This document shows positions 15,581 through 49,396 of a stretch of DNA of 64,000 nt, piece after piece. The DNA comes from Botryllus schlosseri. Its lineage: Eukaryota. The notes beneath the pieces were generated by a model, which was not told where the DNA came from, searched no databases, and worked only from the letters and a program-made list of their open reading frames with translations. The position numbers and the translations under genes were made by a program. Each line of letters begins with the position of its first letter. Within the stretch, counting starts at the first letter, position 1. The stretch is from positions 4,838,001 through 4,902,000 of the forward strand of contig CM119371.1 in NCBI GenBank assembly GCA_051294905.1, read 5' to 3'.

Positions 15581-16621
15581 TCATGATTTTTTTATTCCGG
15601 CATGCATATACATATGACGCCTGAGGCCTAAGTTCTGAATGAATGCCTTACCACATACATCACATTCATGATTTTTTATTCCAGCGTGCATATCCATATG
15701 ACGTTTCAGGTCGCACTTCAGCAAAAATGTTTTCCCACATACATCACATTCTTGATTTTTGATTCCAGCATGCGTATCCATATGACGCTTGAGGCTAAAT
15801 TTCTCTATGAATGCTTTACCACATACAACACATCCATGATTTTTTATTCCAGCATGCATATCCATATGACGCTTGAGGTGATTGTTTTCGGTAAATGCTT
15901 TCCCACATACATCACAGTCATGATTTTTGATTCCATCATGCATATTCATATGACGCTTGAGGTGACTCTTCTTGGCAAATGCTTTCCCACATATGGCACA
16001 TGCATGATTTTTGGTTCCAGCATGCATATCCTTATGACACTTGAGGTCTCCCTTCCAGGTAAATGCTTTCCCACATATGGCACATGCATGATTCCTGATG
16101 CCAGCATGCATATCCACATGGCGCTTGAGGTTACCTTTATGAATGAAAGCTTTCCCACATACGTCACATTCATGATTCTTGATTCCATCATGCGTATCCA
16201 TATGAAGCTTGAGGCTAACTTTCCGAATGAATGCTTTCCCACATAAATCACATTCACGATTTTTTATTCCAGAATGCATATCCATATGAAGCTTGAGGTA
16301 ACCATTCCGAATGAATGCTTTCCCACATACATCACATTCATGATTTTTGATTCCAGCGTGCAGACCCATATGACGTTTGAGGCCGTGCTTCTGCAAAAAT
16401 TCTTTCCCACATACATAACATTCATGATTTTTGATTCCAGCATGGCTATCCTTATGACGCTTGAGGTCTCCCTTCCAGGTAAATGCTTTCCCACATATGG
16501 CACATGCATGATTTTTGATTCCAGCATGCATATTCATATGAAGCTCAAGGTGACTTTTCTGAATGAATGCTTTCCCACACACTTCACATACAAGATTTTT
16601 CATTCCAGCGTGCTTATCCAT
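15581..16621 (-). CDS. Tandem C2H2 zinc-finger array, 12 intact fingers; possibly a pseudogenised exon
   Basis: 12 x CxxCGK(A)Fx5LxxHxxxH with linker (A/D/S)GIKNH(E/A) on an 84-bp period. Degenerate fingers continue upstream (to ~16720, in-frame TGA) and downstream after a 1-nt frameshift in a T-run near 15590. Confidence 0.85.
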
Positions 16622-16729
16622 ATGGTGCTTGAGATTACTCTTTCAACTGAATGCTTTCCCACGCATATAATTTTTATTGCTAGCATCAGTAGCATAGATA
16701 TTCTTATGAAGCTTGAGAAAGTTTTAGTA

Positions 16730-17629: not shown

Positions 17630-18335
17630 CAGGGCCGGCCAACCCGTGGCCCGCGAGAAGGTTTTGAGTGGCCCGCGCGGTAATTTCCGAAATTGGTAAT
17701 GTTATAAAAAATGAACTGCACAGATCGTGAACTTGCAAGGCCAACCAAAAATTTGATTAGTCTGGAAGCAACACTTGAGATGTTATGACTAAAATATCAG
17801 TTACGACGCATTGGCATTTCCATGAGCCAGTTACACTTTGGTAGATCATCGTACACTACAATAAAGCAGAATAATTTGCGATAAATTTATCAAAAGTAAA
17901 TATTTTCTACTCGCTTCGCGCAACATGTTGTCACTCGATTTCTTGCTTTTAATATTGTTGCCCCTTTGTGAAAATGAAAGAACGCCTAATGTATCAGATT
18001 GAGTCTAACTATATTCTCGATTACGAGACAAAGTGTCGTTCAGCATATGCGACTTTGCGTTTGCGCTCGCAGAAAGACCGTCGACTATGAAACCTAGGCA
18101 CAAAACGATTGACGCATGTTAGTCGAAGCTTTCGAAATTGATATGACCAGGTGCTGAATAGTCCAGTCCTGGCATACTGAGCCCAGCGATATACTGCAAG
18201 CCCGCAATATAGTCAAGTGACAATATTATTGAGCTATAAACTTCGAAAAATTTTCGCGCTTCGCGCGGCTAGTGGCCCGCGCAATATTTCGTCGATCGAA
18301 TGTGGCCCTTTGACTGAAAAGGTTGGCCAGCCCTG
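17630..18335. mobile_element. hAT (Charlie-like) MITE, copy 1
   Basis: CAGGGCCGGCCAACC...GGTTGGCCAGCCCTG with perfect 8-bp TSD CCCTAGGG; diverged second copy at 50421-51136. Confidence 0.9.
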
Positions 18336-21300
18336 CCCTAGGGTGTACCAGAATTTTCAAAGGGTGTACCACTCGGATGGGGTGTACAGGGGTGTACCAG
18401 ATCCGAATTACAATAAGCCGATGGCTAGCTATCACAAATGCAGGTATATGCGTCAGTACAGGGCAGTTTCTTTTTTACATGTCAAAATTTGTCAAAATTT
18501 TGTCAAAATTGTAGCGTTAGGTCAAAATTTGTCAAAATTGTTCATAAAGTCAACATTTTTTTGACGTCTTTATTTCGTTTGTATCGTAAATTTTGCACAG
18601 AAGATCCAAATCATCGCGGCTCATTTGGTAACTCGGTCAAAGATCCGTGATCACGTGCAGAGTTGGATATTACAACATTTTAATTCAATTACAAGTACAA
18701 TTACTTCCTTGCATGTTTTATTAAAATTACAATTACAATTACTCAATGCTGAAATATCAAATTACAATTGCAATTACAATTACTTTTAAACAGGTCATTG
18801 ATTCAATAAAGATCGAGGTGTTCTTTGACTACCGTAGCGACGTATAATTAGCAACAATCTCAAGCTATTCATGTTTAATTCCTGATATGTAGAATACCCT
18901 TTAACTAGAAAAAAATCGTATTCGTACGTATTCGAACTATTCCTAATCATGAGTACTGATAACTACAAGCACCGAAAAATGTTTCAAGCGAATGTTAAGA
19001 ACAAAACGTTTGAGCGACTAACAGCGAATAGGCTACAGGACAGTCAATGAAATGTAATCAAAGGATTAGGCTACTCAGAGCTGAGTGAGGATAATGAAAT
19101 GTAATTGGTAAGGCGTCAGCGATAAGGATGATTCCGATAAGGTGCGTAAAATTAAAATAACTGCAAAAGGAGAGAACCTCCTGATAACTAAGAATTACAA
19201 TAATTTGGTTCACATTTACATTTCCACTTGGTCGGAAATTGTTTAATTGCATTTGATGAACATTAGGGTGCGAAAAGTTTCTGGCTCCAGTAATTTTGGC
19301 CAAGATTAGGATAACATCTCTGCAAATGCGTGATCAAGTTTGATGAAGCCTAGGTTAAAACTTGAATTTTTTTTCTTATTGTTGCAACAAGCCTCGGTAC
19401 TGGTCAGAGATTTAAAAAAATCGACAATGGTGTAGGAAATGGTTCAGCACAGGTTTCAGAAGAGTTTATTTGCGGTTCATCCATTTTTGAAATATTAAGA
19501 TTTAGGTTAGCCACTGGTTCTCTAACTTTTTTAGACACGCCCCCTTTGTGATAGTGAATATTTCGTGCCCCCCCTGATCGTCATAGCACACAATGAAATC
19601 AGAAAGTTAGCAACACTTACATATAGTTTGAGGGTATGGGTGCATTGCATTCGTTGCCAAATCGATATATGCACCTTCAAACACTTCCACCAGAGAGCCG
19701 AACTCTCTCTGTTTCAAAGCGTGAGCGCACAAGTATAAAATTACGGTCACTTTCTCGTTACAGAGGACATTATCACTTTGAGCTCTCAGTGACATGAGGG
19801 GAAGTCTGGCGTTCGGGGTCATTTCTGAGCGAGCCAATCAGTCCTTCTCCTTTCCTTCCATGGCTGGAAATCAGCACCAATATAGTTACAGAAGTCAGCA
19901 TTGTCAAGTCGATGTTTTTCGCTAGTCCCCTGCCCATGTTTGCCCTGCAAGCATTTCCACTACAAATATGTCCACTCTTATGAAATGCAACCATATTGAG
20001 CTATGTAATGTAGCCCATGTGAAGTCGGTGGATTCGCCCAATGCTAGGCTCAAGTATTCGAAGCGGCTACACGTTTCGGAACATGCGATAAAAGAACGAC
20101 TGACATTGCTGTTACTCTTCTAGTCAAGGTTGATTCGAAATTTGCCTGGTGCTGTTTTCCTTTCGGAAGTATTCTCACAGTTTGTTAGAGTTTAATTGAA
20201 ATGCACCTTCTCAAGCAGATTTCTTGGGTTTAGCGATATTCCAAGCAGTTTTGAACTATGCGACTGTAACGTCGTCGGCAATATTAACGATCTCGAAATA
20301 TGGATTGCTGGGCTTGACATCTAGCTAGCAAAGTCTTTTCTAAGAATCAGGCGATATGTATGACTGCAAAAGAAACTGCCAAGGTAATTTTGAGCTTCTA
20401 CGCTTCATAACGACAACTGCTCTTCGACAAATATTACACATCGGCTTTCAAATTATATCGGAGAAAGCAAATTCATTGTTCAACGCAGAGTTACAGAACC
20501 AGTTTTTGACGTTTAATTTCCCGTTCCTTGTTCTTGTTTTTGTTTAAACCATTCGACGTGAGTGAAATACTCTTGAAAGCTGTACTACGCAGCCGGATTC
20601 CCTTGAACCACAGTCCAGCCGAATACCGAGTCAAAACAATAACAATCTAAACCCGAGCATATAAGTAGTAGGATGGGATGCGTTTGTTACCGCCCCTCAG
20701 GCTATTTAGAATGTAAACACTCTCATAATATAATTAACGTTGGACTGTGCCCGGTCCATGCTTCCGAGAGATAAATAACATTCATTATACGTTAGATGAT
20801 ACTTTTCCTTGATATTCTATTATGTGTATTTAGGACTAATGCGACAACGGTAGACTATCGCCGTGTGTATTTATGAGCATCTCTCGCCGCTACACTCTCG
20901 AAACTTTCCTCCGACAATTTTACGACTTATGATTACCGCGTCAAAACTTACATTGGCACTTTACTTAGTCTCCTTGAAATAGCATTGTATAGTGTACGAG
21001 TTCATTTTATTTCGAAAAAAGAGCATATCAATGATATCGTTGATCGTTATTGCGTCGATTCATTAGCTGAAATCCTCCAGATCGGTTGATGTTTCGAGGT
21101 ACACCGCTTTGCTGCCGTCCGACACTGCGATCCGAGTTCTTGCGTTCGATCTGACCGTTTTGTTTGATGTAGCGATCACTGGCTTGTAGTATATACGATA
21201 CGAGCGGAAGGTCGGGATTATGAACAACTACGCTAGGCGAATAGATGACGAATTCATCAGCTCGCAGTATAACCGCTACCTGTATAATGTTTGCATGTCG

Positions 21301-24129
21301 AGTATAAGGGTATTTAACTCGGCACTAAAATGCCAACGGAATAGCCGCAGGGAGTCGGTTCTCGTTGCTATAATTAAACGAACACCTTCGCCGCAGGTAC
21401 GCGATCACCGACGTTATAATGATAGGGACAAATTAGCCGCATGAAAGCGAGTCTAATGAATATAACGACAGACAACAAGTTAGTTGAAAAGTAAAACTAA
21501 TCGTGACCGATGCAAGACGGCGTGAAACAGCGCTTTCGCTCGATTCTTGTAGTGACCACAATTCATACGATTCAGTCCTTTTCATGTCACTAGAATAAGG
21601 GTGATTAAACCAACAGTGAAACGCCGCTTCACAATTGCAAGTTAGTGTAATGCAAATTTTACCCCTTCAAGGGTTATAAAAGTATGGACGGCAAAAGGTA
21701 TAATTTTGGATCGACATGGTGCCTTAGCTATCTATCAATAGGTATGTAATATTTGTTGAAATAGTTGCTATTGATCATAGACCAAGCTTGCTTTCAGAGC
21801 TGGAAACTAAACGCATATGAAAATTTACCTAGGTGTTCCCCACACGCATCAAATGTAGGCCTACTCAAGTGTTTATGAGGTGGCGAATAGTTCGACGGTT
21901 GTTGGCATGCAAGGACGTCACATAGAATTGTGGAGTTTTCTGTAAACTATAATCCAGTGATCTATTTTCAATCACTATATTTTTCATTAATCTAAACTAA
22001 GTACTGTTAGTAGGCAAACCCTAGGAAAGTATATCCTCTGATAAAAGCAGGAATAATTTGTTATCCGTGAAATAAATAGATGGTGCGACTCTAATGGACA
22101 TAAAGAAATGAACATTTTGTAAAGTAGATATTTTTCGGTATGCTAAATTCGGCTACGCGGTGCTAGACTTCTTGGCCGCATGAAATAGGATGTTTTAGCT
22201 TCAACCTCAACGCATTAGCACACCGAATTTAAATATAGGCGATAAATAATATACAGTAGCTCCAATTTTAATGAAAAAATAAAAATAAAAAAGCGTGAAA
22301 AATTGCATTTATCCTGGAACGCACCAAGAAAAACCGTATGAATTTGTAAAGTAGTTAGAAAACTACACTATTCCGCTACACTAAAGACTTAAACAATCCG
22401 GATTTTGTATGGTGTATACTAATTTTACATTGCGGAGTATTCAGTAAAGTTCAATCCAGTGAATTCGCGTAGGCTATGCATACAAATGAGGAAAGTTACA
22501 TCAGCGCGTGTTAACTAGTTGTATTATGTAGCTTGCAATTCATGCAAGTTTCGAAACTTCCACACTGAGTCTTTTAAAATAGATAGAAACGAAAAAAACT
22601 AATCGAAAAAATTTACGAAGTTTGGATGCGGCATATTTAGGTTTTCTAAAAATTATTCATACCCATGACTCGAAATATTGTTAACTAACTTATCATGTTC
22701 TGAAGTCTCATACATGCACCGACTCTGTGCATTCAATGTAGGGGTAGCTGACTTGGAGACAGAAAAACACACATATTTGACCGTAACATGGTCTTAGTAT
22801 GAACCGACATGCATTCGACTTGTGGAAAAATGTGTCGCAGCGTGTAGTGTACAAATTTCGATGTTGCGCAAATACCACAGACATAAGATAAGCGTGTAGT
22901 GTACAAATTTCGATGTTGCGCAAATACCACGATTTTACATCGAATTATTCGAATCGACTACGTACATTGTATAGGTGTGAGGTGAAATAAAACGGATTTA
23001 CGCAAAAGTTCGACACTAAAACGCATACGGTGTCTTATAAAGTAATAATGTAAGCTGCGATGGATGCTGCTATATAATGCTAGTAGCGAATATAGTAGAA
23101 AGTCCCCGTCCGGATGAATGTAAGCAGGTGCGCTTAGTAACGTAGTAAATCGCATAACAGAATTTACATAAATTGCTACTTCTACCTTAATTTAATGGAT
23201 TTATCTGAGATCATTGCTTTACTTAATCTCTCCAAAATGTGCATTATACAAGTACGTCACCATCGAAACCATCTACCTATAACTAGCTGGCAGTATAATT
23301 GTAGCAAATACTCGAGTACTAATTTTAAAGTAACTTAGATATCTAAATGAGCTCTGAGTCGTTGTTATCTCGCATCTTGTACTTGTATTCGCACTTTACC
23401 TTTACACGTCGTTTTTGTATAATGGATACTAATTTTATTAAAAATACACAAAAAGCGCGAAAAATACATTTTATCCCGGAACGGAGCAAGAAAATGCGTA
23501 TGAATTTTGTAAAGTAGATATTCTATTCTATTATGTGTATTTAGGGCTAATGCGACATCACTATGTTAGCGACAGGCCTGATTTGAACACACTAACTTTG
23601 CAAATTAAACTTATCACCCACCACGAACACTCAATGAAGAGCACCCTGGAGCACCCTCATAAATGCTCCACAATTCGTGACGTATAATATACTGAGCATA
23701 TAATAAGCTGACAAAACTGATACTTGAGTACTCCGAAATGCACAAGTACTTTACCTTTACACGGCGTTTTTTGTAAAATGAATACTAATGGTACGCGAAT
23801 GATCATAGACTAAGCTTGCTTTCAGAGTTGGAAACTAAATGCATACGAAAATTTAACTATGTTTTCCCCTCACGCATCAAATGTAGGCATACTCAAGTGT
23901 TTATGAGGCGGCGAACAGTTCGAAGGTTGTTGGTATGCAAGGACGTCACATAGAATTGTGGAGTTTTCTGTAAACTATAATCCAGTGATCTATTTTCAAT
24001 CACTATACTTTTATTAATCGAAACTAAGTACTGTTAGTAGGCAAACCCTAGAAAAGTATCCTCTGATAAAAGCAGGAGTAATTCGTTATCTGTGAAATAT
24101 ATAGATGGCGCGCAATATGAGCGGTGTTA

Positions 24130-25935
24130 CGAATATAACAGAATTACCATGCTAATATGTGACTCATCACCTTGAAACTAGGTACGTAGTTGTAGGACAT
24201 TGTGATTATGTAGAATACCAAATTTCCTCGTACATTTCATGATGGAACTTTAAAACTAACGCGACTCTACAACGACTCTTTGCGTACATCTGTTTTGCGG
24301 GAGCGTATATAGCACGTACCCATACATACCCAACTTTAATAACGGAATTACCATGCTTAACATTGAATCCAAACTCTAAACTTGATACGAACACACTAAT
24401 TTCGCAAATTAAACTTATCACCCACCACGAACACTCAATGAAGAGCACCCTGGAGCACCCTCGTAAATGCTCCACAATTCGTGACGTATAATATACTGAG
24501 CATATAATAAGCTGACAAAACTGATACTTGAGTACTCCGAAATGTACAAGTACTTTACCTTTACACGACGGTTTTTGTAAAATGAATACTAATGGTACGC
24601 GAATGATCATAGACTAAGCTTGCTTTCAGAGTTGGAAACTAAATGCATACGAAAATTTAACTATGTTTTCCCCTCACGCATCAAATTAGTTGTATCGAGT
24701 TATCGAATGATTTTTTTCTTTACATCAAAATAACTAGAGTGTGTAACTACATTAAAAACGTATCTAAATGAGCTCCAGGTCATTGTGATTATACAGCATA
24801 CTAAATTTCATCACACATTTCATGATGGAACAACTTTAAAACTAACGCAGCTCTATAGCAAGTTTTGCCTAAATCTGTTTTCGGTAGCATGTACATATCC
24901 ATAGTCAGCTTTAATAACAGAATTACCATGCTAATATGTGACTCCTCACCTTGAAACTTGGTACGTAGTTGTAGGACATTGTGATTATGCAGCATACCAA
25001 ATTTCTTCACGCATTTCATAATGGAACAACTTTAAAACTAACGCGGCTCTACATCGACTTTTTTCGAACATCTGTTTTGCGGGAGCGTATAGCACGTACC
25101 TATACATAGTCAACTTTAATAACGGAATTACCATGCTTAACATTGAATCCCAACTCTAAACTTTATTCGTAGTTGTAGGACATTGTGGCAATGCACCATG
25201 CTAAATTTCATCGCACATCTAATGATGGATCACCTTTAAAACTAACGCAGTCGAATACCGACTTTTAAGCATATCTGTTTTGCGTGAACATAGCATATAC
25301 CTATGCATAGTCAATTTTAATAGCAGAATTACCGTGTTAAACATTGAATTCCCACCTTGAAAGTTGGTACGCGATTATAGGACACTATAACAATGCACCA
25401 TACCAAATCCCATCACACATTTCATGATGGAACAACTTTAAAACTAACGCGGCTCTACATCGACTTTTTGCGTATATCTGTTTTGCGGGGGGCGTATAGC
25501 ACGTACTCATACATAGCTAACTTTAATAACGGAATTACCATGCTTAACATTGAATCCCAACTCTAAACTTGATACGTAGTTGTAGGACATTATGGCAATG
25601 AACCATGCTAGACTTCATCACACATCTAATGATGGAACACCTTTGAAACTATCGCAGTCGAATACCGACTTTTACACGTATCTGTTTTTCGTGAACATAG
25701 CATATACCCATACATACTCAATTTTAATAACAGAATTAGCATGCTAAACCTTAAATTCTCACCTTGAACGTTGATACCCAGTTGTAGGACATAATAACAA
25801 TGCACCATACCAAATTTCGTCAGGCATTTCATGATGTAACACTTTCAAAACCAACGCAGTTCTATACAGGCTTTTGGCTAAATCTGTTTTTCCGTAGCGT
25901 AGCACGTACCTATACATAGTCAACTTTAATATCAA
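24130..25935. repeat. ~203-bp tandem repeat with ~407-bp dimeric higher order (left arm)
   Basis: 'atgatggaac..tttaaaactaacgc' recurs at ~24240, 24822, 25018, 25222, 25424, 25629, 25830; subtype motifs recur at ~407-bp spacing. Confidence 0.85.
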
Positions 25936-27955
25936 TACATGTTTATCGTAAGTCCTACACAGTCATGATATCCGGCCGAGTTTGACTTTTAGAAAACATT
26001 ATACCGACATCGCGACATCTTACAAAATTGAAACCGCGGTGACTGCTTGAGAGACCTACCAGTGATATCGCGGTAATCTAGTTACTTCCACAAAATAGTA
26101 TGTATTCAACTTACTTTCCACAAATCTAACGCGCAAAACAATTTACTTTGCTAACGAAAAGTGCTGAGTCATCATATCATTATCCACGCAACAATACACC
26201 TAAAACATACTATCGTACAAAATGGTCGCTAACCTCTTTGTGCACCAGCTGTAAATCTCACAAGCAACAAGTTTCAAGATTCCAGTTATTGCGCCAAGTC
26301 GTTATGTTGACGAAAGCGTATATTGTAATATCATGATCGATTTGCATTCGTTGGTCACAAACTGTCACTACTCTAAATAATTATTTTTCACTCAAACACA
26401 ACAGCATACTTGTCGCCATTCGTTTTCATCAAGCACGAGTTCAATAAACTTACTTACTACGACATGAATTGGTATTTTTATGTTGTGTAAATAGGTAATA
26501 ATTAATTTTAGTAACACTATACCAACATCATCGAGTTGTGCGAATAGATTTACATGTGGTGTTATGGTTTTAATCGAAGTACACTGCACGATCTAATGTA
26601 GAGTCATCTCTATTGTATAGCAACTCGGTAATCGAAATGCATGCATTAACATTTAAACAGCGATCGTGTTTCGTCACGCGAAAAATATAATGCGATACTC
26701 TGCACAGGGCATGCAAATCCTTTTCACACTCGTAATAGTATACCAACGGCTACCGGCGACAACGTTTAACAATACCAACGACACTAAACATACGATACGT
26801 ACCCAATCTGCAAATTCTTTCGATTTATTCTGTCCGTTTCAATTTAAGATAAGGAAGCCCATTTCACTCAATGTATCGATGCCTACGGTACTCTACAAAT
26901 TTTTCTGATTAATTCTCCCTATGCTTATTTATCACAAGAAAGATGATTTGACACCTAAAGTACGAAATACTTTTTCGCTTGAACTAAGCCGCAGCGCCTG
27001 GAGTGGAATTTTACGGGGTATGTGGACTCATTTCGTAGGGCTCTATACCATAGGAGCATACTTTACGCTCCAATTCGATTCCCACACATTCCATATAATT
27101 ACTAACAGAACCATTGAGTACCAGCCTTGACATTTTCCGTAGTACTAGATGGCATGTATACAATTTCACGACATCCGACATTACGACGAAGACTATCAAA
27201 ATATCGAAAGAAGCCCTCTATTCTTTTCTGAAATAATCAAGGTTTTATCAGGACTTCCCTTCATATAAACTCCAGCAGAATCACTAATAACCTCTCAAGT
27301 GTACTCAATTTACTCTAATTTGATACTCGTGTACCAAATCCCTATTTTCCGCAAGTATGATAGAGGCTATCGCTCGATACTCAACGATTCGTAATTTTGC
27401 TGGAATACAAGTACAATTAGTTTAAAGTAGTTTGAGGTTACGTTTGTATCACCTTGACAAGTGCTATTATCAAAAAATGCTTTTGCTAAACTCTTACACT
27501 TTCACTAAACTTCTACACTGAATCTTGTAAAGTAGATAGAAAAGAAAAACTATTAACATAAGGTAAGTGAGAAGCACGCAAATTTCGATTGCATACAAAT
27601 GTCACAAACTGCGCTAACTTCCAGAGTTGTTAAGTATAGAAGTACTCGTACGTCTTGAGTATACCCAAGTAGGTTTTTTGCCTACATGTACCAAATACTC
27701 TCAAGTCCTTATGATATTGGAGTACATCAACTTCATGATAGCTACAGTATTAAACAGAAATAGACCTAGAGTACTAACGTTTTTGTGCAGTGAGAGTTCG
27801 CAAATTATCGAAGTATTTTTGTTATTTTTATTGCGATAAGTCATTCTGCAGCGCAAAAATGCGTCGTAGGATATAGATGAAACTAGCACCTCTCATCAAG
27901 ACCGCTGATAACAGTACATTTCAACATAAAAAGCATAAAAAACATTCCCGCGCGC

Positions 27956-27998
27956 GTCTTAGTATTAGGTGGTAGGGTAGGAAGTGTTAGGTTTAGGA
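27956..27998 (+). other. 43-bp asymmetric G-rich spacer at the palindrome centre
   Basis: GTCTTAGTATTAGGTGGTAGGGTAGGAAGTGTTAGGTTTAGGA: one C, six G-runs, three TTAGG; clamped by CCCGCGCGC/GCGCGCGGG. Confidence 0.9.
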
Positions 27999-30018
27999 GC
28001 GCGCGGGAATGTTTTTTATGCTTTTTATGTTGAAATGTACTGTTATCAGCGGTCTTGATGAGAGGTGCTAGTTTCATCTATATCCTACGACGCATTTTTG
28101 CGCTGCAGAATGACTTATCGCAATAAAAATAACAAAAATACTTCGATAATTTGCGAACTCTCACTGCACAAAAACGTTAGTACTCTAGGTCTATTTCTGT
28201 TTAATACTGTAGCTATCATGAAGTTGATGTACTCCAATATCATAAGGACTTGAGAGTATTTGGTACATGTAGGCAAAAAACCTACTTGGGTATACTCAAG
28301 ACGTACGAGTACTTCTATACTTAACAACTCTGGAAGTTAGCGCAGTTTGTGACATTTGTATGCAATCGAAATTTGCGTGCTTCTCACTTACCTTATGTTA
28401 ATAGTTTTTCTTTTCTATCTACTTTACAAGATTCAGTGTAGAAGTTTAGTGAAAGTGTAAGAGTTTAGCAAAAGCATTTTTTGATAATAGCACTTGTCAA
28501 GGTGATACAAACGTAACCTCAAACTACTTTAAACTAATTGTACTTGTATTCCAGCAAAATTACGAATCGTTGAGTATCGAGCGATAGCCTCTATCATACT
28601 TGCGGAAAATAGGGATTTGGTACACGAGTATCAAATTAGAGTAAATTGAGTACACTTGAGAGGTTATTAGTGATTCTGCTGGAGTTTATATGAAGGGAAG
28701 TCCTGATAAAACCTTGATTATTTCAGAAAAGAATAGAGGGCTTCTTTCGATATTTTGATAGTCTTCGTCGTAATGTCGGATGTCGTGAAATTGTATACAT
28801 GCCATCTAGTACTACGGAAAATGTCAAGGCTGGTACTCAATGGTTCTGTTAGTAATTATATGGAATGTGTGGGAATCGAATTGGAGCGTAAAGTATGCTC
28901 CTATGGTATAGAGCCCTACGAAATGAGTCCACATACCCCGTAAAATTCCACTCCAGGCGCTGCGGCTTAGTTCAAGCGAAAAAGTATTTCGTACTTTAGG
29001 TGTCAAATCATCTTTCTTGTGATAAATAAGCATAGGGAGAATTAATCAGAAAAATTTGTAGAGTACCGTAGGCATCGATACATTGAGTGAAATGGGCTTC
29101 CTTATCTTAAATTGAAACGGACAGAATAAATCGAAAGAATTTGCAGATTGGGTACGTATCGTATGTTTAGTGTCGTTGGTATTGTTAAACGTTGTCGCCG
29201 GTAGCCGTTGGTATACTATTACGAGTGTGAAAAGGATTTGCATGCCCTGTGCAGAGTATCGCATTATATTTTTCGCGTGACGAAACACGATCGCTGTTTA
29301 AATGTTAATGCATGCATTTCGATTACCGAGTTGCTATACAATAGAGATGACTCTACATTAGATCGTGCAGTGTACTTCGATTAAAACCATAACACCACAT
29401 GTAAATCTATTCGCACAACTCGATGATGTTGGTATAGTGTTACTAAAATTAATTATTACCTATTTACACAACATAAAAATACCAATTCATGTCGTAGTAA
29501 GTAAGTTTATTGAACTCGTGCTTGATGAAAACGAATGGCGACAAGTATGCTGTTGTGTTTGAGTGAAAAATAATTATTTAGAGTAGTGACAGTTTGTGAC
29601 CAACGAATGCAAATCGATCATGATATTACAATATACGCTTTCGTCAACATAACGACTTGGCGCAATAACTGGAATCTTGAAACTTGTTGCTTGTGAGATT
29701 TACAGCTGGTGCACAAAGAGGTTAGCGACCATTTTGTACGATAGTATGTTTTAGGTGTATTGTTGCGTGGATAATGATATGATGACTCAGCACTTTTCGT
29801 TAGCAAAGTAAATTGTTTTGCGCGTTAGATTTGTGGAAAGTAAGTTGAATACATACTATTTTGTGGAAGTAACTAGATTACCGCGATATCACTGGTAGGT
29901 CTCTCAAGCAGTCACCGCGGTTTCAATTTTGTAAGATGTCGCGATGTCGGTATAATGTTTTCTAAAAGTCAAACTCGGCCGGATATCATGACTGTGTAGG
30001 ACTTACGATAAACATGTA

Positions 30019-31824
30019 TTGATATTAAAGTTGACTATGTATAGGTACGTGCTACGCTACGGAAAAACAGATTTAGCCAAAAGCCTGTATAGAACTGCGT
30101 TGGTTTTGAAAGTGTTACATCATGAAATGCCTGACGAAATTTGGTATGGTGCATTGTTATTATGTCCTACAACTGGGTATCAACGTTCAAGGTGAGAATT
30201 TAAGGTTTAGCATGCTAATTCTGTTATTAAAATTGAGTATGTATGGGTATATGCTATGTTCACGAAAAACAGATACGTGTAAAAGTCGGTATTCGACTGC
30301 GATAGTTTCAAAGGTGTTCCATCATTAGATGTGTGATGAAGTCTAGCATGGTTCATTGCCATAATGTCCTACAACTACGTATCAAGTTTAGAGTTGGGAT
30401 TCAATGTTAAGCATGGTAATTCCGTTATTAAAGTTAGCTATGTATGAGTACGTGCTATACGCCCCCCGCAAAACAGATATACGCAAAAAGTCGATGTAGA
30501 GCCGCGTTAGTTTTAAAGTTGTTCCATCATGAAATGTGTGATGGGATTTGGTATGGTGCATTGTTATAGTGTCCTATAATCGCGTACCAACTTTCAAGGT
30601 GGGAATTCAATGTTTAACACGGTAATTCTGCTATTAAAATTGACTATGCATAGGTATATGCTATGTTCACGCAAAACAGATATGCTTAAAAGTCGGTATT
30701 CGACTGCGTTAGTTTTAAAGGTGATCCATCATTAGATGTGCGATGAAATTTAGCATGGTGCATTGCCACAATGTCCTACAACTACGAATAAAGTTTAGAG
30801 TTGGGATTCAATGTTAAGCATGGTAATTCCGTTATTAAAGTTGACTATGTATAGGTACGTGCTATACGCTCCCGCAAAACAGATGTTCGAAAAAAGTCGA
30901 TGTAGAGCCGCGTTAGTTTTAAAGTTGTTCCATTATGAAATGCGTGAAGAAATTTGGTATGCTGCATAATCACAATGTCCTACAACTACGTACCAAGTTT
31001 CAAGGTGAGGAGTCACATATTAGCATGGTAATTCTGTTATTAAAGCTGACTATGGATATGTACATGCTACCGAAAACAGATTTAGGCAAAAGTTGCTATA
31101 GAGCTGCGTTAGTTTTAAAGTTGTTCCATCATGAAATGTGTGATGAAATTTAGTATGCTGTATAATCACAATGACCTGGAGCTCATTTAGATACGTTTTT
31201 AATGTAGTTACACACTCTAGTTATTTTGATGTAAAGAAAAAAATCATTCGATAACTCGATACAACTAATTTGATGCGTGAGGGGAAAACATAGTTAAATT
31301 TTCGTATGCATTTAGTTTCCAACTCTGAAAGCAAGCTTAGTCTATGATCATTCGCGTACCATTAGTATTCATTTTACAAAAACCGTCGTGTAAAGGTAAA
31401 GTACTTGTACATTTCGGAGTACTCAAGTATCAGTTTTGTCAGCTTATTATATGCTCAGTATATTATACGTCACGAATTGTGGAGCATTTACGAGGGTGCT
31501 CCAGGGTGCTCTTCATTGAGTGTTCGTGGTGGGTGATAAGTTTAATTTGCGAAATTAGTGTGTTCGTATCAAGTTTAGAGTTTGGATTCAATGTTAAGCA
31601 TGGTAATTCCGTTATTAAAGTTGGGTATGTATGGGTACGTGCTATATACGCTCCCGCAAAACAGATGTACGCAAAGAGTCGTTGTAGAGTCGCGTTAGTT
31701 TTAAAGTTCCATCATGAAATGTACGAGGAAATTTGGTATTCTACATAATCACAATGTCCTACAACTACGTACCTAGTTTCAAGGTGATGAGTCACATATT
31801 AGCATGGTAATTCTGTTATATTCG
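30019..31824. repeat. Mirror copy of the ~203/407-bp array (right arm)
   Basis: Reverse complement of 24130-25935. Confidence 0.85.
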
Positions 31825-34800
31825 TAACACCGCTCATATTGCGCGCCATCTATATATTTCACAGATAACGAATTACTCCTGCTTTTATCAGAGGATACTT
31901 TTCTAGGGTTTGCCTACTAACAGTACTTAGTTTCGATTAATAAAAGTATATTGATTGAAAATAGATCACTGGATTATAGTTTACAGAAAACTCCACAATT
32001 CTATGTGACGTCCTTGCATACCAACAACCTTCGAACTGTTCGCCGCCTCATAAACACTTGAGTATGCCTACATTTGATGCGTGAGGGGAAAACATAGTTA
32101 AATTTTCGTATGCATTTAGTTTCCAACTCTGAAAGCAAGCTTAGTCTATGATCATTCGCGTACCATTAGTATTCATTTTACAAAAAACGCCGTGTAAAGG
32201 TAAAGTACTTGTGCATTTCGGAGTACTCAAGTATCAGTTTTGTCAGCTTATTATATGCTCAGTATATTATACGTCACGAATTGTGGAGCATTTATGAGGG
32301 TGCTCCAGGGTGCTCTTCATTGAGTGTTCGTGGTGGGTGATAAGTTTAATTTGCAAAGTTAGTGTGTTCAAATCAGGCCTGTCGCTAACATAGTGATGTC
32401 GCATTAGCCCTAAATACACATAATAGAATAGAATATCTACTTTACAAAATTCATACGCATTTTCTTGCTCCGTTCCGGGATAAAATGTATTTTTCGCGCT
32501 TTTTGTGTATTTTTAATAAAATTAGTATCCATTATACAAAAACGACGTGTAAAGGTAAAGTGCGAATACAAGTACAAGATGCGAGATAACAACGACTCAG
32601 AGCTCATTTAGATATCTAAGTTACTTTAAAATTAGTACTCGAGTATTTGCTACAATTATACTGCCAGCTAGTTATAGGTAGATGGTTTCGATGGTGACGT
32701 ACTTGTATAATGCACATTTTGGAGAGATTAAGTAAAGCAATGATCTCAGATAAATCCATTAAATTAAGGTAGAAGTAGCAATTTATGTAAATTCTGTTAT
32801 GCGATTTACTACGTTACTAAGCGCACCTGCTTACATTCATCCGGACGGGGACTTTCTACTATATTCGCTACTAGCATTATATAGCAGCATCCATCGCAGC
32901 TTACATTATTACTTTATAAGACACCGTATGCGTTTTAGTGTCGAACTTTTGCGTAAATCCGTTTTATTTCACCTCGCACCTATACAATGTACGTAGTCGA
33001 TTCGAATAATTCGATGTAAAATCGTGGTATTTGCGCAACATCGAAATTTGTACACTACACGCTTATCTTATGTCTGTGGTATTTGCGCAACATCGAAATT
33101 TGTACACTACACGCTGCGACACATTTTTCCACAAGTCGAATGCATGTCGGTTCATACTAAGACCATGTTACGGTCAAATATGTGTGTTTTTCTGTCTCCA
33201 AGTCAGCTACCCCTACATTGAATGCACAGAGTCGGTGCATGTATGAGACTTCAGAACATGATAAGTTAGTTAACAATATTTCGAGTCATGGGTATGAATA
33301 ATTTTTAGAAAACCTAAATATGCCGCATCCAAACTTCGTAAATTTTTTCGATTAGTTTTTTTCGTTTCTATCTATTTTAAAAGACTCAGTGTGGAAGTTT
33401 CGAAACTTGCATGAATTGCAAGCTACATAATACAACTAGTTAACACGCGCTGATGTAACTTTCCACATTTGTATGCATAGCCTACGCGAATTCACTGGAT
33501 TGAACTTTACTGAATACTCCGCAATGTAAAATTAGTATACACCATACAAAATCCGGATTGTTTAAGTCTTTAGTGTAGCGGAATAGTGTAGTTTTCTAAC
33601 TACTTTACAAATTCATACGGTTTTTCTTGGTGCGTTCCAGGATAAATGCAATTTTTCACGCTTTTTTATTTTTATTTTTTCATTAAAATTGGAGCTACTG
33701 TATATTATTTATCGCCTATATTTAAATTCGGTGTGCTAATGCGTTGAGGTTGAAGCTAAAACATCCTATTTCATGCGGCCAAGAAGTCTAGCACCGCGTA
33801 GCCGAATTTAGCATACCGAAAAATATCTACTTTACAAAATGTTCATTTCTTTATGTCCATTAGAGTCGCACCATCTATTTATTTCACGGATAACAAATTA
33901 TTCCTGCTTTTATCAGAGGATATACTTTCCTAGGGTTTGCCTACTAACAGTACTTAGTTTAGATTAATGAAAAATATAGTGATTGAAAATAGATCACTGG
34001 ATTATAGTTTACAGAAAACTCCACAATTCTATGTGACGTCCTTGCATGCCAACAACCGTCGAACTATTCGCCACCTCATAAACACTTGAGTAGGCCTACA
34101 TTTGATGCGTGTGGGGAACACCTAGGTAAATTTTCATATGCGTTTAGTTTCCAGCTCTGAAAGCAAGCTTGGTCTATGATCAATAGCAACTATTTCAACA
34201 AATATTACATACCTATTGATAGATAGCTAAGGCACCATGTCGATCCAAAATTATACCTTTTGCCGTCCATACTTTTATAACCCTTGAAGGGGTAAAATTT
34301 GCATTACACTAACTTGCAATTGTGAAGCGGCGTTTCACTGTTGGTTTAATCACCCTTATTCTAGTGACATGAAAAGGACTGAATCGTATGAATTGTGGTC
34401 ACTACAAGAATCGAGCGAAAGCGCTGTTTCACGCCGTCTTGCATCGGTCACGATTAGTTTTACTTTTCAACTAACTTGTTGTCTGTCGTTATATTCATTA
34501 GACTCGCTTTCATGCGGCTAATTTGTCCCTATCATTATAACGTCGGTGATCGCGTACCTGCGGCGAAGGTGTTCGTTTAATTATAGCAACGAGAACCGAC
34601 TCCCTGCGGCTATTCCGTTGGCATTTTAGTGCCGAGTTAAATACCCTTATACTCGACATGCAAACATTATACAGGTAGCGGTTATACTGCGAGCTGATGA
34701 ATTCGTCATCTATTCGCCTAGCGTAGTTGTTCATAATCCCGACCTTCCGCTCGTATCGTATATACTACAAGCCAGTGATCGCTACATCAAACAAAACGAT

Positions 34801-35530
34801 CAGATCGAACGCAAGAACTCGGATCGCAGTGTCGGACGGCAGCAAAGCGGTGTACCTCGAAACATCAACCGATCTGGAGGATTTCAGCTAATGAATCGAC
34901 GCAATAACGATCAACGATATCATTGATATGCTCTTTTTTCGAAATAAAATGAACTCGTACACTATACAATGCTATTTCAAGGAGACTAAGTAAAGTGCCA
35001 ATGTAAGTTTTGACGCGGTAATCATAAGTCGTAAAATTGTCGGAGGAAAGTTTCGAGAGTGTAGCGGCGAGAGATGCTCATAAATACACACGGCGATAGT
35101 CTACCGTTGTCGCATTAGTCCTAAATACACATAATAGAATATCAAGGAAAAGTATCATCTAACGTATAATGAATGTTATTTATCTCTCGGAAGCATGGAC
35201 CGGGCACAGTCCAACGTTAATTATATTATGAGAGTGTTTACATTCTAAATAGCCTGAGGGGCGGTAACAAACGCATCCCATCCTACTACTCATATATCAA
35301 GAAACCAGAACACACCAAAGAATGAGTAATCAATCGAAACAGAGACGGGGCGATAAGAGAGTTAAGTAGCTAAATTAATATGTAACAACACTGTGCTATA
35401 ATAGTAATTGCGTTAATAATGAAAGATGTCGCGGGCCGCAAAATATACGTCTGCGGGCCGCGGGTTGAGAACCCCTGATATAAACTGACTATATTCGAAT
35501 TCAACTTCAAAACAAAAGGTTTGGTTAAGG

Positions 35531-36203
35531 CAGTGGTTCCCAACCTTTTTCGTCTCGTGCCCCCTCCCCCTTGGCAGATATTTGAGCTAAAATCCCCCCG
35601 CCCTCCCTATGAAAAAGTTGCCCGTGACTAAAAAATGTGCTTTTTAACGCGCAACCATTTGTTGACTGAGTAATGAATGGCCAAACATATTCAGATATGC
35701 CCGAACTATGGCGAATGCGCACCAAACTTTGGTGAAGTACATTCAAATTTGACCTGTTTTTGACCGGTCAGGTAGCTGCTGACGAATAATACATCATCAA
35801 GTCCGCTTGCTATGGACTTGAGTTGAATCAATGAATTTGGTACGGTATGTTTTTCATGTTAGCTTATATGTTGGCTTAAGAAGTTAAACAATTTAAGTAG
35901 CGACCTTAAGCTGAATTCGGCTTGACGTTTTCCTGCTTAGTAGCAATTTGGTCGAGAGGCTGTCGCAGAGCTAACAAAATCGTCTCGTGAGCCTCAGTTT
36001 ATCAGGGGGTGTAATCCGCCAAAGAAACATACAGATGTAAAGAACTAATATCCACTTAACAGTTCCATACCATTAATATCTAAAAACCTTGTGAACCGAG
36101 TGTATCTTCCAATACAATGGCAAAGCCAGATTTCCAAAAAAAAAATTTAAGACAGATTCCCCCCGAAAAATTTCAAAATCCACCCCCCGGTTGGGAACCA
36201 CTG
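35531..36203. mobile_element. hAT-type MITE
   Basis: CAGTGGTTCCCAACC...GGTTGGGAACCACTG, perfect 8-bp TSD GGTTAAGG. Confidence 0.9.
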
Positions 36204-36941
36204 GGTTAAGGTAAGAACAGAGAACAGAAATAGAATTTTGCTATCAAATTACTTTACTGAACTAGTTTACTACAACGTAAGCTGTAAGCTTCGATCACTT
36301 CGTTTGATGTCAATTTATTTGTGATAGGCAATGGAGGCTCAGTAACACGCACTATCGCTGAATGATTGGTCGCTCTCACGGATTACACCATCTTTTCGCG
36401 AACAATCCGACCATTTGCAAGATACAGTGATTTTTATCGACACCGATTACTTGATGACTTGAAATTGACTCGTGAATTTCGCTCCGAGTCACGAGTCAAT
36501 CCACATTTCTGATACGCCGAGTCAAGTCAAGTCAAGTCATTTTAGAAAAGTGACTCGAGTCAAGTCAAGTCATACGAAAAAGGTGACTCGAGTCATCCTA
36601 ACACTGTAATTACCAAAGCGAGGATCGTTATCAAGAAATCGCGCGCGCAGATCGTATTACAGCACGGCGGAGATGCCTCAATTTTGCGTTTAAATATGAA
36701 CAGCGAAAATGCGTAAATGATTTAGCCTGTTGCCTTTTGTAGCCTGTTGCCGGTTATTGCACATGATCTGGATTAAATTTATTTCAAATCAATGTAATTT
36801 CTACTGTCTGCTAAGATGGTGTAGTATTTTGATGAGTGGAGATAGTTAAGACAAAATAACGCTCGAGCTTGTGCGATTGTATCTCTTGAATAACAGCGGC
36901 CCGGCGCAGGCCCAGTCTGCAACCAAAAAGCATTCCCACAT

Positions 36942-37890
36942 CAGTGTTGGGATCAAGTCACTACCTTCGAGTCACGAGTCATTTCGAGTCATTGCACATT
37001 TTGACTCGAGTCAAGTCAAGTCAATCTATTTTCGAAGGTGACTCGAGTCAAGTCACTCGATTTTTGGAGGTGACTCGAGTCAAGTCGAGTCAAGTCAAGT
37101 CAAGTCACGAGTCAAGTCACAATTCAAGTCAAATTGAATTTTCGAAGTGAGAGTGATGATGCAAAGTCACAACATTTTGCCAGTTGTGTGAAAAATAGAT
37201 TAATTAGCCATTTATCTTGAATCAAATACCGATTATAAAGTTAAATATACATGCAAAATTGCATTGTATCAAACACGCATACCTAGAACTACTAATAAAA
37301 TACGTGAGTAACTGTATAGGTACATGCTACAGTCTGTTATTTATGTTATTATCAGAGATTCGAATACAAAGCCTCGAGAAGTTCAAACAAATTGATATGG
37401 TACAATACACTACCCAACTATACATCCGGGAATATAAATGCATGAACTATATTCTTTCTATTTAAATAATACAAGATGGTTTATGAAGGTGAGCACTGCG
37501 CAATGTAAGCACTGAATCGTCTAAGAAACAGAGATACGTTGCTATTGATCTGTTTACTACTACGTAAGCTGTGATCATTTCGTTTGCGGCCAATATATTT
37601 GTGATGTAACAAGGGAGTACCAGTGAAACGTACAATAAGTGAATGACTGGTTGCTCTCGCAAGTGTCACCGGCGTATCGCTAATAATCCGAATACACACA
37701 TGATGCAGGGATTTGGTCGACAACGTTTACTTATTAATGACTTGAAATTGACTCGTAAATTTCGCTCCCAAGTCACGAGTCAAACCACATTTCTGAAGCT
37801 CCGAGTCGGGTCAAGTCAAGTCATTTTTGCAAAGTGACTCGAATCAAGTCAAGTCATACGAAAAAGTGGACTCGAGTCATCCCAACACTG
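36942..37890. mobile_element. hAT-type MITE with GACTCGAGTC subterminal repeats
   Basis: CAGTGTTGGGAT...ATCCCAACACTG, perfect 8-bp TSD TCCCACAT. Partial copy at ~36280-36606; related arrays at ~7730-7910, ~58500-58722 and ~61742-62170. Confidence 0.9.
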
Positions 37891-38062
37891 TCCCACATGC
37901 GTTTGCGTTGCAAACTTGACAATCGCAAATTGTCCAGGCCAAGGCTATAACTTCTCATCATTACAAAGTTACATCGAACATTGATAGCACTATCACGCGC
38001 CTTGAGTTACGGAGTGGCCTAATTTTCCTAGCCTCCGATTTTCTACTACTGGCCATATAGCC

Positions 38063-42817: not shown

Positions 42818-45800
42818 CAGGGGTCACCAACCTTTCTGCAACCAAGGGATACTTTTGTGTACTGATTGAAGCGACGGGCTACCGTTTAATCCCGCCGTTT
42901 ACCCGTACCAGACACAATTTCCGGTTTGATATTCATAGCATGGGGAGGTATCGCATAGCGGTAAGATTTCTAAGAGATTCTTTTAAATCAAAACATCTCA
43001 TTTCAAACAGCTACCAGCTAGCCACTAAGACTTTTTAAGAAATCACTGCAAGCTCAGATTTTGAAATAAATCTCGTCACATGTTAGACTGGACAAAGTGG
43101 ACATCGTGTTATCTGTTTCTAAACCAGTCAGTGGGAAGCCTGGTATTGCATGCTATCAACTGGTGCGCTATACTCTGATATGTAACTTACACTGCAACTC
43201 TGAGTGGTGTTCCAGATGTGAATTAGTGAGGCGTGTTCTGTGTTTGTAATTTAATGAATGTCGTGTCCGCAAAGGCTGATTCACAACGATAAGTTGAACC
43301 AAACACGCTTGCAACCTTCATAGCTGCTGCGCAATTGCGCAATGCGCATTCACCACTGAACTTTTCCGTGTCAACACGGCACCAAAAGTTTGCTGCAGCC
43401 TTGTGGGCTTTGAGGTGGAGGTGATTTTGCAGTGGTACAATTTCTATCTCTAATTGTTCAGCATTTAGACATCACAGATTTCATTGTACCTGACAGCAGC
43501 ATCGATTACAGAAAGTTAGAAACATGGTACTATAAATTGCGTTGAGTGTAAGTGAGACAAGCTGTGTCAAAAGATGCAATACATATCGGGCATACTGCAT
43601 CTGCTAGTACGTCACCGCCATTTGCTACGGATAGTAATGTTGTTTACTACTTTGGCATTGTGCGGGACGTCGAGCTACCATAACGGAACCCCCACCCTTT
43701 CACCAAGAAGACCGTGGATGGCATGCCGTCATATCGCCTGTATGAGCAGTACGCTGTGGAGCTCTGGCTCCTTCTCTCTCCTATCTGTTATGGTATAATG
43801 CTATATCACGTGACTTATCGCATAGTTATAACCGAGTGCATATCAAAGATTGACTCAGATTATGAGACTCATGTACGCTGAAACTTACTGCTAAAACTAT
43901 CCAAATTACTGTACAATATATCTGGAAAAGGCAATTGTTGTCGTCTCTATTGAACTGCCAGTCAAGAACTACACAGAACACAGGACGTTCGTGTCAGCTA
44001 CTGCGGAAGTGCCAGTTAAGTATAAACTGTAAGCTGATATCCGTAGACAACGGACTTGCCGTATACTATCCGCAGACGACGGACGGGCTATATCTGCCAT
44101 ATGGCGCCCCGAGTTCGTGACCAAGTTCAAACGTAAAGACTCCTTGCCGCTTCATCATCGGAACATTAGCATTCGCTTGCAACGATACGGAAATTCACGT
44201 AAACACCAGGACTGCAAGACACATCCGGTATTTACCCCTTTTATACGATTTCTGGATTTGTTTGTCGGCTGGCAGTTCGCATATATACATTTGACTGTAA
44301 TTTTCCGTGTCATAACATTTCGCTTTTGATATTTCATTTATATTCGCAAATTTATTGCGGTTTTTGTTACGATGGCAACCAACAGCGAATCAAATGCGGG
44401 TTTAGCGTATGAAATAGCGCATAAGTTCGATCTTAGATACCGCGAGGATGAACCCTTTATTGGCTTCGCCATATCCGATGATGATCTTCAAAACAATATA
44501 GGCTTACATCACGAAAATCAAAATTTTGATCAGTCCGCCCATCGGGCAGACGCCGGCGATAATGATGTCGTTTCCGCGGAGTGAACGGCGAAATTTCCCG
44601 GAATGCACGGCCTATACCCGTGATCCAATTCGTATCCTACTAATTTGATTGTTTGACTCACTTTTACTTATTTTAAAGATGCAACTTTTGATCGAAAATC
44701 TCCTGCTATATGCTTCATTAATTTCAATAGGTTGTTCGAAAATATCAATATTACATCACATTTCGCATGCTCTACATTACATTAATCTAATGCGTTTTAC
44801 TTGATATTTGTTTTGACTATGGAACTAAACAATTATTCCTAATTGATTCGGGAATTGAAACGAGCTTCATAAAAGCTCTGACTCATTCGTTTGGTAATTA
44901 CACCGTTGCGTTCTGCTGCCTAAATGATACAATACTTCTCGGTAACGATAAATCGGAATTGACGATGCAATTTATTAGTTCTTCGCTTGTATATAAATTC
45001 ATTTTTGAGATCGCATCGCTATCCTATTGAATAATTGCCTCTGACTTCCTTTGTTGTTTTAAACGTTCGCGAGCGCACGATTAGCGATGAATACAATCAG
45101 ACAACGATCTCAGCTCTTTCAGACGCCCACAATTCGATTTGCTATCTAACGTAAATTCACATTGTATGAATAACCTTATTGCGTCGTGCTATATCACGCT
45201 ACCAATAAGCGCGTTTTGACTCCGAACTCAACATACCGCATTTGTACGTATTCTAATTTGATACACATTTAACACATGACGCGTAATTTTCTGGATCGTT
45301 TAACCAGACGATTCGCCTACTCTAATGCACTGAATAAGGTACGTAAATACAATATTTAGGACGATTGTCCCGCACAAATGCTTCTCTCTCCCGTGAAATC
45401 GAATAATTACTACCGATTCACTATTCACTATTTCCATAGATACAACTTCACTTTCGCACGAATAGCCTACCTTAGTCGTGTAACATACCATTTGCTTACA
45501 GTTGTTTGATTGTTTAACACCCCCATTTCGATTCTGATTATAAATTTTGCGGTTTTTCCTACCTTCATATTACCGCGTAAATCACTTCCAACCACCCTGG
45601 TAATTTACCAATCTATTTTTTGTTCGTTTTTTAAATTCACGGCATCTCCGTGGAACATAACTACCAATTCCATGATATTAATTTTTGTGATTTCATATGT
45701 CATTCATGCGACATTGACTTACGCGCGTATTTAAGCGCTACCCTTTTTAACTACCGTAACTATACCGTCAATGTTACTTCGATAAAAATAGTGACCCGGC

Positions 45801-48800: not shown

Positions 48801-49396
48801 TATATCACGTGACTTATCGCATAGTTATAACCGAGTGCATATCAAAGATTGACTCAGATTATGAGACTCATGTACGCTGAAACTTACTGCTAAAACTATC
48901 CAAATTACTGTACAATATATCTGGAAAAGGCAATTGTTGTCGTCTCTATTGAACTGCCAGTCAAGAACTACACAGAACACAGGACGTTCGTGTCAGCTAC
49001 TGCGGAAGTGCCAGTTAAGTATAAACTGTAAGCTGATATCCGTAGACAACGGACTTGCCGTATACTATCCGCAGACGACGGACGGGCTATATCTGCCATA
49101 AGGCCGTTGGCCTATTATATGTCCTCGGTATATCTTGTTACTACATGTTGGTATATTACTAATTGTAATCGGGTGTATTTGATATCATCATTTTAAGTGG
49201 TTTATATATATGTATTGTCATTTCTAAGTCACATGTTATAGTGTGATTTAAACAACAATAGATAAATCACTGGTGATAATCTGACGAATATTGGCAAATG
49301 CTGCTATTCGATCTATTTTTAGAACAGGCTCGCGGGCCACTCATCTGGTCCTCGCGGGCTACCTGGTGCCCGCGGGCACCAGGTTGGTGACCCCTG
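42818..49396. mobile_element. hAT (Charlie-like) MITE nested in 42060-49827 and hosting the LTR element
   Basis: CAGGGGTCACCAACCT...AGGTTGGTGACCCCTG; degenerate TSD TGATAGAC/TGATACAA. Confidence 0.85.
43755..49100 (+). mobile_element. Non-autonomous LTR retrotransposon (LARD-like), 347-bp LTRs, no gag/pol
   Basis: Direct repeats 43755-44101 and 48754-49100 (TGTGG...CCATA, no difference seen). PBS TGGCGCCCCGAG at 44102; PPT GGAAGGGGTGA at 48743-48753; imperfect 4-bp TSD ACGC/AGGC. The ~4.65-kb interior lacks long ORFs. Confidence 0.88.

Follow-up and report, generated by a model that had tools for sequence, protein, structure and literature searches.

Movement and replication of Mavericks (Polintons) are still described by a model: excision, panhandle formation and protein-primed copying. 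In vertebrates, the commonest Maverick end motif is 5′-(AGT)2//(ACT)2-3′, and intact copies are flanked by target-site duplications (TSDs) that are perfect and 6 bp long, according to the excerpted text of Barreat & Katzourakis (PMC8097293). The same excerpt gives a size of 12,723–24,620 bp, with a mean of 16,862 bp, and terminal inverted repeats (TIRs) of 46–1,447 bp. Protein-primed polymerases use terminal reiteration for sliding and jumping back, for example at the adenovirus 3′-GTAGTA template end (PMC5175343, excerpt). The other eukaryotic group with 6-bp TSDs, IS3EU/GingerRoot, has TA..TA ends, occasionally TG..CA (PMC10045372). Here we analyse a 64,000-nucleotide stretch of the Botryllus schlosseri genome (assembly GCA_051294905.1, contig CM119371.1, positions 4,838,001 to 4,902,000; hereafter the window), which contains a palindromic element of 14,627 bp at window positions 20664–35290. 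With moderate confidence, we read it as a real, gene-less, non-autonomous fold-back transposon that would have been moved by a Maverick integrase and rendered palindromic through fold-back copying.

An inverted-repeat scan of the window reveals a single dominant pair of arms, at 20659–27955 and 27999–35295, with 43 nt between them. The scan overruns the element by 5 nt into AT-rich flanks, and the true element spans 20664–35290. Comparison of the element with its own reverse complement yields arms of 7,292 bp each: a left arm at 20664–27955 (plus strand) and a right arm at 27999–35290 (minus strand) that is its reverse complement, with five mismatched pairs (21155/34799, 22489/33465, 22978/32976, 24003/31951 and 24862/31092) and no indels. 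The remaining 16 mismatched pairs all lie inside the non-palindromic 43-bp spacer at 27956–27998 (plus strand), which is G/T-rich (G17 T15 A10 C1). No blastn match is found between the arm and the window flanks, and the two flanks beyond the duplication described below are likewise unrelated to each other. Chance is excluded as the source of the palindrome.

The element starts with AGTAGTAGG and ends with CCTACTACT. Its left edge reads GAG CATATA followed by AGTAGTAGGATGGG, and its right edge reads CCCATCCTACTACT followed by CATATA TCAAG, with CATATA forming a perfect 6-bp duplication at 20658–20663 and 35291–35296. The left end motif AGTAGT, or (AGT)2 as the motif is defined in the PMC8097293 excerpt, occupies 20664–20669 (plus strand) and is followed by AGG; its right counterpart ACTACT, or (ACT)2, occupies 35285–35290 (plus strand). 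At the centre, the left arm ends inward in CATTCCCGCGCGC and the right arm begins with GCGCGCGGGAATG. The last six arm bases, GCGCGC at 27950–27955 with their mirror at 27999–28004, are self-complementary and provide a candidate microhomology for fold-back priming. A first, sequence-only reading of this DNA had reported the palindrome at these coordinates, with 7292-bp arms, a 43-bp spacer, five arm mismatches, no indels and a perfect CATATA bracket; the self-comparison recovers the identical list of mismatches and zero indels, and both copies of the duplication are present.

The window contains 30 AGTAGT and 27 ACTACT sites, forming 311 ordered pairs more than 200 bp apart. A perfect flanking 6-bp direct repeat accompanies one of these 311 AGTAGT...ACTACT pairs, against 0.098 expected, and that pair constitutes the ends of the palindrome. 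With vertebrate Mavericks, as the PMC8097293 excerpt describes them, the element shares the (AGT)2//(ACT)2 ends, the 6-bp TSD, the possession of TIRs and a length within the 12.7–24.6 kb range. It differs in the TIRs themselves, which at 7,292 bp, against 46–1,447 bp in that excerpt, reach ~5 times the recorded maximum and take up all but 43 bp of the element, and in its gene content, as neither a Maverick gene nor a remnant of one is detected by Pfam. IS3EU/GingerRoot has the 6-bp TSD in common with the element (PMC10045372) and was rejected as a candidate: the ends here are AG..CT, and a 2-base shift to TA ends destroys the duplication. Because the end motif, TSD length and size agree with Mavericks, the IS3EU/GingerRoot ends do not fit and the Maverick genes are lacking, the element would be filed as a non-autonomous Maverick in behaviour and not as a Maverick proper, a family assignment that is moderately supported by these terminal features.

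An improbable alternative is that the palindrome is a fold-back element of some other or unknown cut-and-paste superfamily, AGTAGT-ended and flanked by a 6-bp duplication by chance, with no link to Mavericks. Fold-back elements made of long, internally repetitive inverted repeats are known, such as Galileo of the P superfamily (PMC3573991, excerpt), and no Maverick gene lies nearby, either among the ORFs (open reading frames) of the 64-kb window or in the arm by Pfam. The combination of end motif and TSD length, however, jointly matches the Maverick hallmark (PMC8097293, excerpt), the ends of IS3EU/GingerRoot are unfit, and no further family with AG(T) ends and 6-bp TSDs was found in the literature surveyed. 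Outside the element, a lone ACTACT is present at 37288–37293, whose reverse-complemented lead-in is the AGTAGT-led site most like the palindrome terminus in the window (score 27). Neither a partner end nor a matching 6-bp duplication was found for it in the window, and it may be the solo end of a related element, or chance.

The arms are devoid of recognisable genes. Across one arm plus the spacer, the longest stop-to-stop frame is at most 135 aa, and none of the 99 stop-to-stop ORFs of at least 35 aa reaches a Pfam cut-off; four of the 99 give chance-level matches (E 0.06–0.09, ~13 bits against cut-offs of 25–27). Six-frame read-through of the arm, with X placed at stops, gives no Pfam match at E ≤ 0.5 in any frame. 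By ORFs and read-through together, Pfam detects no pPolB, rve integrase, packaging ATPase, adenain-like protease, or major or minor capsid protein in the element; the search is blind to capsid-like genes that have no Pfam model, yet every ORF is at most 135 aa long. The absence of visible Maverick ORFs, already remarked upon from the sequence alone, is upheld by both the 99 ORFs and the six read-through frames. An Rfam scan of 18000–38000 returns no family, a tRNA scan of the element returns none, and nested small inverted-repeat elements in the arm are limited to four 15-nt pairs of chance size.

Instead of genes, the arm holds repeats. A tandem array at 24797–25931 (plus strand; mirror at 30023–31157) has a 202-bp unit, 5.6 copies and 75% matches, and can alternatively be described by a 407-bp higher-order unit. 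Two internal duplications are present, one between 23579–23882 and 24383–24686 at 97% identity and one between 21772–22087 and 23800–24112 at 92% identity. GC content is 37.3% in the arm and 39.1% and 41.2% in the flanks. The arm is non-coding, repeat-filled DNA and, because it contains no decayed Maverick genes, recent truncation of a coding Maverick to one half does not account for it. The earlier proposal of a Polinton satellite holds in part: the ends, TSD, length, oversized arms and gene absence agree with it; an autonomous Maverick with these ends in the genome, copy-back during protein-primed replication, movement as a palindrome and packaging are its hypothetical parts.

Public sequencing data were used to examine how the arm and spacer are represented beyond this assembly. 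Part of the stretch 19000–28999 is carried by 20 of 24 listed runs (8 studies), two of which carry at least half of the sampled words; the organism labels are A and B, and none of the listed runs carrying this stretch is recorded as RNA. Three DNA contig sets (X1, X4 and X7, from three studies with two organism labels) and a raw RNA run (X23) were mapped to 19000–28300, a range that covers the left half of the palindrome only. The contigs are Logan contigs assembled from 31-letter words, which break at repeat borders and so reach neither into the flanks around other copies nor across the centre. Contigs matching the stretch number 69,383 in X1, 241 in X4 and 5,084 in X7.

The arm belongs to a sequence family that is multi-copy in the species. 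In X4, depth is 1.2–2.4 in the flank bins of 19622–20554 and 7.6–146 within the arm, and X4 contigs of 200–600 bp match the arm with 0–3 differences. The terminal region is multi-copy from ~20759 inward, with 68 contig variants in X1 at position 20770, where nearly all contigs read A (68 in X1, 22 in X7, 2 in X4) and this copy reads G. Some relatives are internally deleted: a joint 22515→24687 occurs in X1, X4 and X7, and a joint 21627→23032 in X1 and X7.

These deletion variants bear on core loss, in which an autonomous Maverick with very long, repeat-filled TIRs would have lost its unique core, for example by slippage at the stem base, leaving TIR–43 bp–TIR. Such a course gains from reported Polintons with TIRs of ~2 kb, which in butterflies contain genes and set a precedent for TIR growth (bioRxiv 10.1101/2025.02.07.637071), and from the 202-bp tandem array within the arms. 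It is nevertheless quite unlikely: TIRs of 7.3 kb are 5 times the vertebrate Maverick maximum of 1,447 bp (PMC8097293, excerpt), a parent with such TIRs is not seen, and the internally deleted arm variants in other copies better fit a non-autonomous family.

The central spacer is also present in independent data. Contigs in X1, X4 and X7 cover spacer position 27977, including a one-base insertion variant in three contigs of X1, one of X4 and three of X7. Because three runs of three studies, under two organism labels, provide this coverage, the spacer is neither read junk nor a private assembly product. The spacer is itself multi-copy, with a summed X7 depth of 14,513 at 27977, against 128–163 for single flank contigs. 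Spacer-to-arm depth ratios, as a gauge of how many copies are palindromic, are estimated at ~0.63 in X1, ~0.73 in X7 and ~1.04 in X4; the depths are summed over all relatives, and the ratios are not decisive.

Long-read data are known to fail at long palindromes, and a mirrored half could stem from a fold-back chimeric read or a mis-join. No read or contig was seen that spans the whole structure, as an artefact would have it. We nonetheless consider this origin very improbable. Two different, unrelated flanks enclose the palindrome in the middle of the window, its limits agree to the base with a transposon end motif and a perfect TSD, there are five differences between its arms, and its spacer sequence recurs in three runs from three studies. 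At 24862, moreover, a small remainder of the X1 depth lacks the family-majority letter (69,649.9 in total against 69,597.2 with C).

The divergence between the arms, five differences in 7,292 bp (0.07%), suggests by its size that the palindrome-forming event was recent but not brand new. At mismatch 24862, the right-arm state, C, is found in nearly all contigs, and the left-arm G is therefore a private change that arose after the duplication. All five mismatches lie within the outer 4.2 kb, an arrangement for which we estimate P ~0.06 under a uniform spread.

RNA run X23 has a depth of 0–5 over most of the stretch and of 14–34 only at 20866–21487. Most of its reads (614 of 628) overlap the stretch only in part, and at 20770 and 20966 all reads listed carry the variant letter. 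These RNA reads are attributed to related copies elsewhere, and no expression is claimed for this copy. Within the same region, the arm segment 20917–21285 has sharp boundaries common to the X7 DNA contigs and the X23 RNA reads, with an identical upstream loose-end sequence in both; this segment is a module of another transcribed repeat embedded in the arm. A 98-aa ORF at 21031–21324 (minus strand), within the sole RNA-covered part, has no relative among longer proteins, which is weak evidence. The spacer at 27956–27998 contains three TTAGG pentamers, against ~0.03 expected from the window density, a composition resembling a telomere repeat.

For the favoured fold-back transposon, insertion and palindrome formation can be outlined as follows. 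An autonomous Maverick located elsewhere in the genome would have supplied a retroviral-like integrase to recognise the pair of identical ends and insert the element with a stagger of 6 bp. At each 5′ end, the doubled AGT would also act as a protein-primed replication origin, its reiteration allowing a primed polymerase to jump back, as at the adenovirus 3′-GTAGTA end. The precursor was presumably already non-autonomous and repeat-filled, and synthesis on one half would have folded back at GCGCGC or at a pre-existing small inverted repeat. A nascent 3′ end terminating in GCGCGC, past the 43-nt stretch, could anneal to the preceding GCGCGC of the same strand and extend along its own arm. Recopying the arm out to its end would then leave a 43-nt loop between the pairing sites and a second, identical terminus. 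A template switch while a linear extrachromosomal copy replicates, as the first reading had it, host fold-back repair and core loss all give the same structure, and the three routes cannot be separated here.

Several observations weigh against this account. The end-motif consensus is that of vertebrate Mavericks and may not be that of the host, and the link to Maverick replication rests on six terminal bases and the TSD length, the arm being without Maverick genes. The 64-kb window contains no autonomous Maverick, pPolB or Maverick-type integrase; its ORFs of at least 150 aa comprise a zinc-finger array, opposite-strand overlapping frames, an unannotated 188-aa frame and the gag-pol of a retrotransposon with long terminal repeats (LTRs). 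Exact scans with the terminal 19–23-mer, also in a version with two N positions, give no match in viral or metagenome contigs. A self-complementary 6-mer has a 1/64 chance, and the GCGCGC microhomology is weak alone. No contig spans the stretch, such contigs being unable to bridge arm–spacer–arm or flank–arm, and the 20663/20664 junction is absent among the rows listed, which concern the left half only. In X4, arm position 27949 and spacer position 27977 have the same depth, 14.2, which is on a par with the 13.6 of the arm contig nearby; from a palindrome, half would be expected. In many relatives, therefore, the spacer is probably part of the ordinary internal sequence, and this locus may be the only one in palindromic form.

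The equality of spacer and arm depth, as if most relatives were non-palindromic, is shared ground with a serious rival, in-situ palindromisation by host break repair. Here a TIR element with Maverick-type ends and the CATATA duplication would already have been inserted. After an internal double-strand break, the left end would fold back and prime at GCGCGC or a small inverted repeat, and synthesis would run out to the left TIR, after which the new TIR would anneal to the resected right TIR. The termini and TSD would be kept, with no Maverick polymerase and no transposition of the palindrome. This route yields exactly the observed structure, fold-back priming at short inverted repeats near breaks is established in yeast (excerpts of PMC7467729 and PMC10622511), and the arm is old, repeat-filled, non-coding DNA. 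It also requires resection or loss of the entire former right half up to the right TIR, and it leaves a total length within the Maverick range unexplained, perhaps as a coincidence. No sequence feature separates it from the favoured fold-back transposon, and on balance we regard host repair as rather unlikely.

Doubtful as well, to our judgement, is a germ-line-integrated snap-back genome of an active Maverick system, in which a non-autonomous satellite would have been copied back by the protein-primed polymerase of a Maverick, kept near unit length for packaging and integrated as a palindrome. Each displaced strand would fold into a 7.3-kb hairpin with a ready-made origin.

At the centre of the palindrome, a further pair of ends offers a lead on nucleation. 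A loose-end boundary supported by 22 contigs of X1 lies before 27421, and an AGTAGT starts at 27426, 5 nt inside; the chance of this coincidence is ~3%. This AGTAGT is one of only three such sites on that arm strand, and its mirror ACTACT ends at 28528, so that the two ends share the centre of the large palindrome. Its first 45 nt resemble the outer end weakly, with a score of 23 where random arm 60-mers give 8 ± 3.5. Leaving aside the two ends of the element itself, it ranks only second among the AGTAGT-led sites. The interval 27426–28528, a lead only, may be a small fold-back unit with the same end type that nucleated the large palindrome.

Other repeats lie in the surrounding window. Just left of the insertion site, 19000–19621 is a very high-copy repeat; in each of the three DNA runs its summed depth is 10–20x that of the adjoining flank bins, and RNA reads contain it too. 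A tandem repeat family of ~63 bp at 1005–1511 has scattered relatives at 36485–37100, 58569–58710 and 61753–61864, some copies lying close to the palindrome's right flank. A dispersed repeat of ~640 bp is present in two copies, at 17636–18279 and 50445–51087, with 81–85% identity, the second just upstream of an apparently intact LTR retrotransposon at 51464–56152. The 208-bp LTRs (TGCAGT...ACTGCA) of this retrotransposon are identical, it has a duplication of 5 bp, GTGAG, and its single gag-pol frame of 1,347 aa contains RVT_1, RNase H, integrase zinc-binding and rve domains, the last being the sole rve domain in the window. Because its LTRs are identical, their sequence suggests a very recent insertion.

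Two further features lie in the window, whose content is that of an animal-type genome. Identical 347-bp direct repeats at 43755–44101 and 48754–49100, 4,999 bp apart, enclose no ORF longer than 112 aa and show no obvious edge duplication; they are possibly a non-coding LTR-type element. A 353-aa frame at 15581–16642 (minus strand) encodes a tandem array of ~12 C2H2 zinc fingers that has a period of 84 nt and an unusual linker, H-AGIKN-H-x-C; the common C2H2 linker is of the TGEKP type.

A gene-less element with only a 6-base motif and a 6-bp footprint would show the minimal cis requirement of the Maverick integrase and perhaps of the polymerase. If the palindrome arose during replication of the element, it would be a copy-back fossil, linking Mavericks to what is known of defective genomes in adenoviruses and linear plasmids. 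If the integrated snap-back genome were the true origin, strand-displacement or panhandle replication, long proposed for Mavericks and never shown, would have its first natural record in this locus. A near-perfect 14.6-kb palindrome is also likely to be a fragile site, and long hairpin RNA could arise from it; if transcribed, the locus would yield a 7.3-kb hairpin RNA able to silence a family of roughly 100 copies.

Among described systems, fold-back elements and defective viral genomes each share part of this architecture. The TSD is 9 bp in Drosophila FB and 7 bp in Galileo, both differing from the 6 bp found here. FB and Galileo also have other ends and other transposases. The likeness to FB and to Galileo, as the excerpt of PMC3573991 presents the latter, lies in a non-autonomous element that consists almost wholly of two long inverted repeats with tandem repeats. 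Both fold-back transposons and Polinton remnants that are non-autonomous or TIR-only have already been described (excerpts of PMC3573991 and bioRxiv 10.1101/2024.01.15.575659). A palindromic or fold-back Maverick was not found in the literature titles and abstracts searched, a scope outside which Repbase and most subscription journals lie and which is no proof of absence.

Palindromes have parallels among protein-primed replicons. Daniell (1976) reportedly described palindromic DNA from adenovirus incomplete particles, and Kikuchi (1985) is said to have described a yeast killer-plasmid "hairpin plasmid", a palindromic derivative of a protein-primed replicon. In snap-back or copy-back defective viral genomes, one end is copied back over its full length to give a symmetric palindrome with an origin at each end (PMC13506859, excerpt). 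The element likewise is a full-length palindrome of one end with a candidate origin at both ends, and its terminal reiteration is compatible with jumping-back as the PMC5175343 excerpt describes it. In snap-back genomes the arm comes from the parental viral genome, while Pfam finds no viral gene remnant in the arm here; such genomes are, moreover, extrachromosomal replication products, and the element is chromosomal. Among Polintons, the closest counterpart is the set of TIR-only insertions in C. elegans (Polinton_CE_TIR), which share Polinton ends without a coding core. According to the excerpted preprint (bioRxiv 10.1101/2024.01.15.575659), these are 744-bp TIR pieces at rearranged loci, whereas the Botryllus element is a 14.6-kb palindrome bounded by a TSD.

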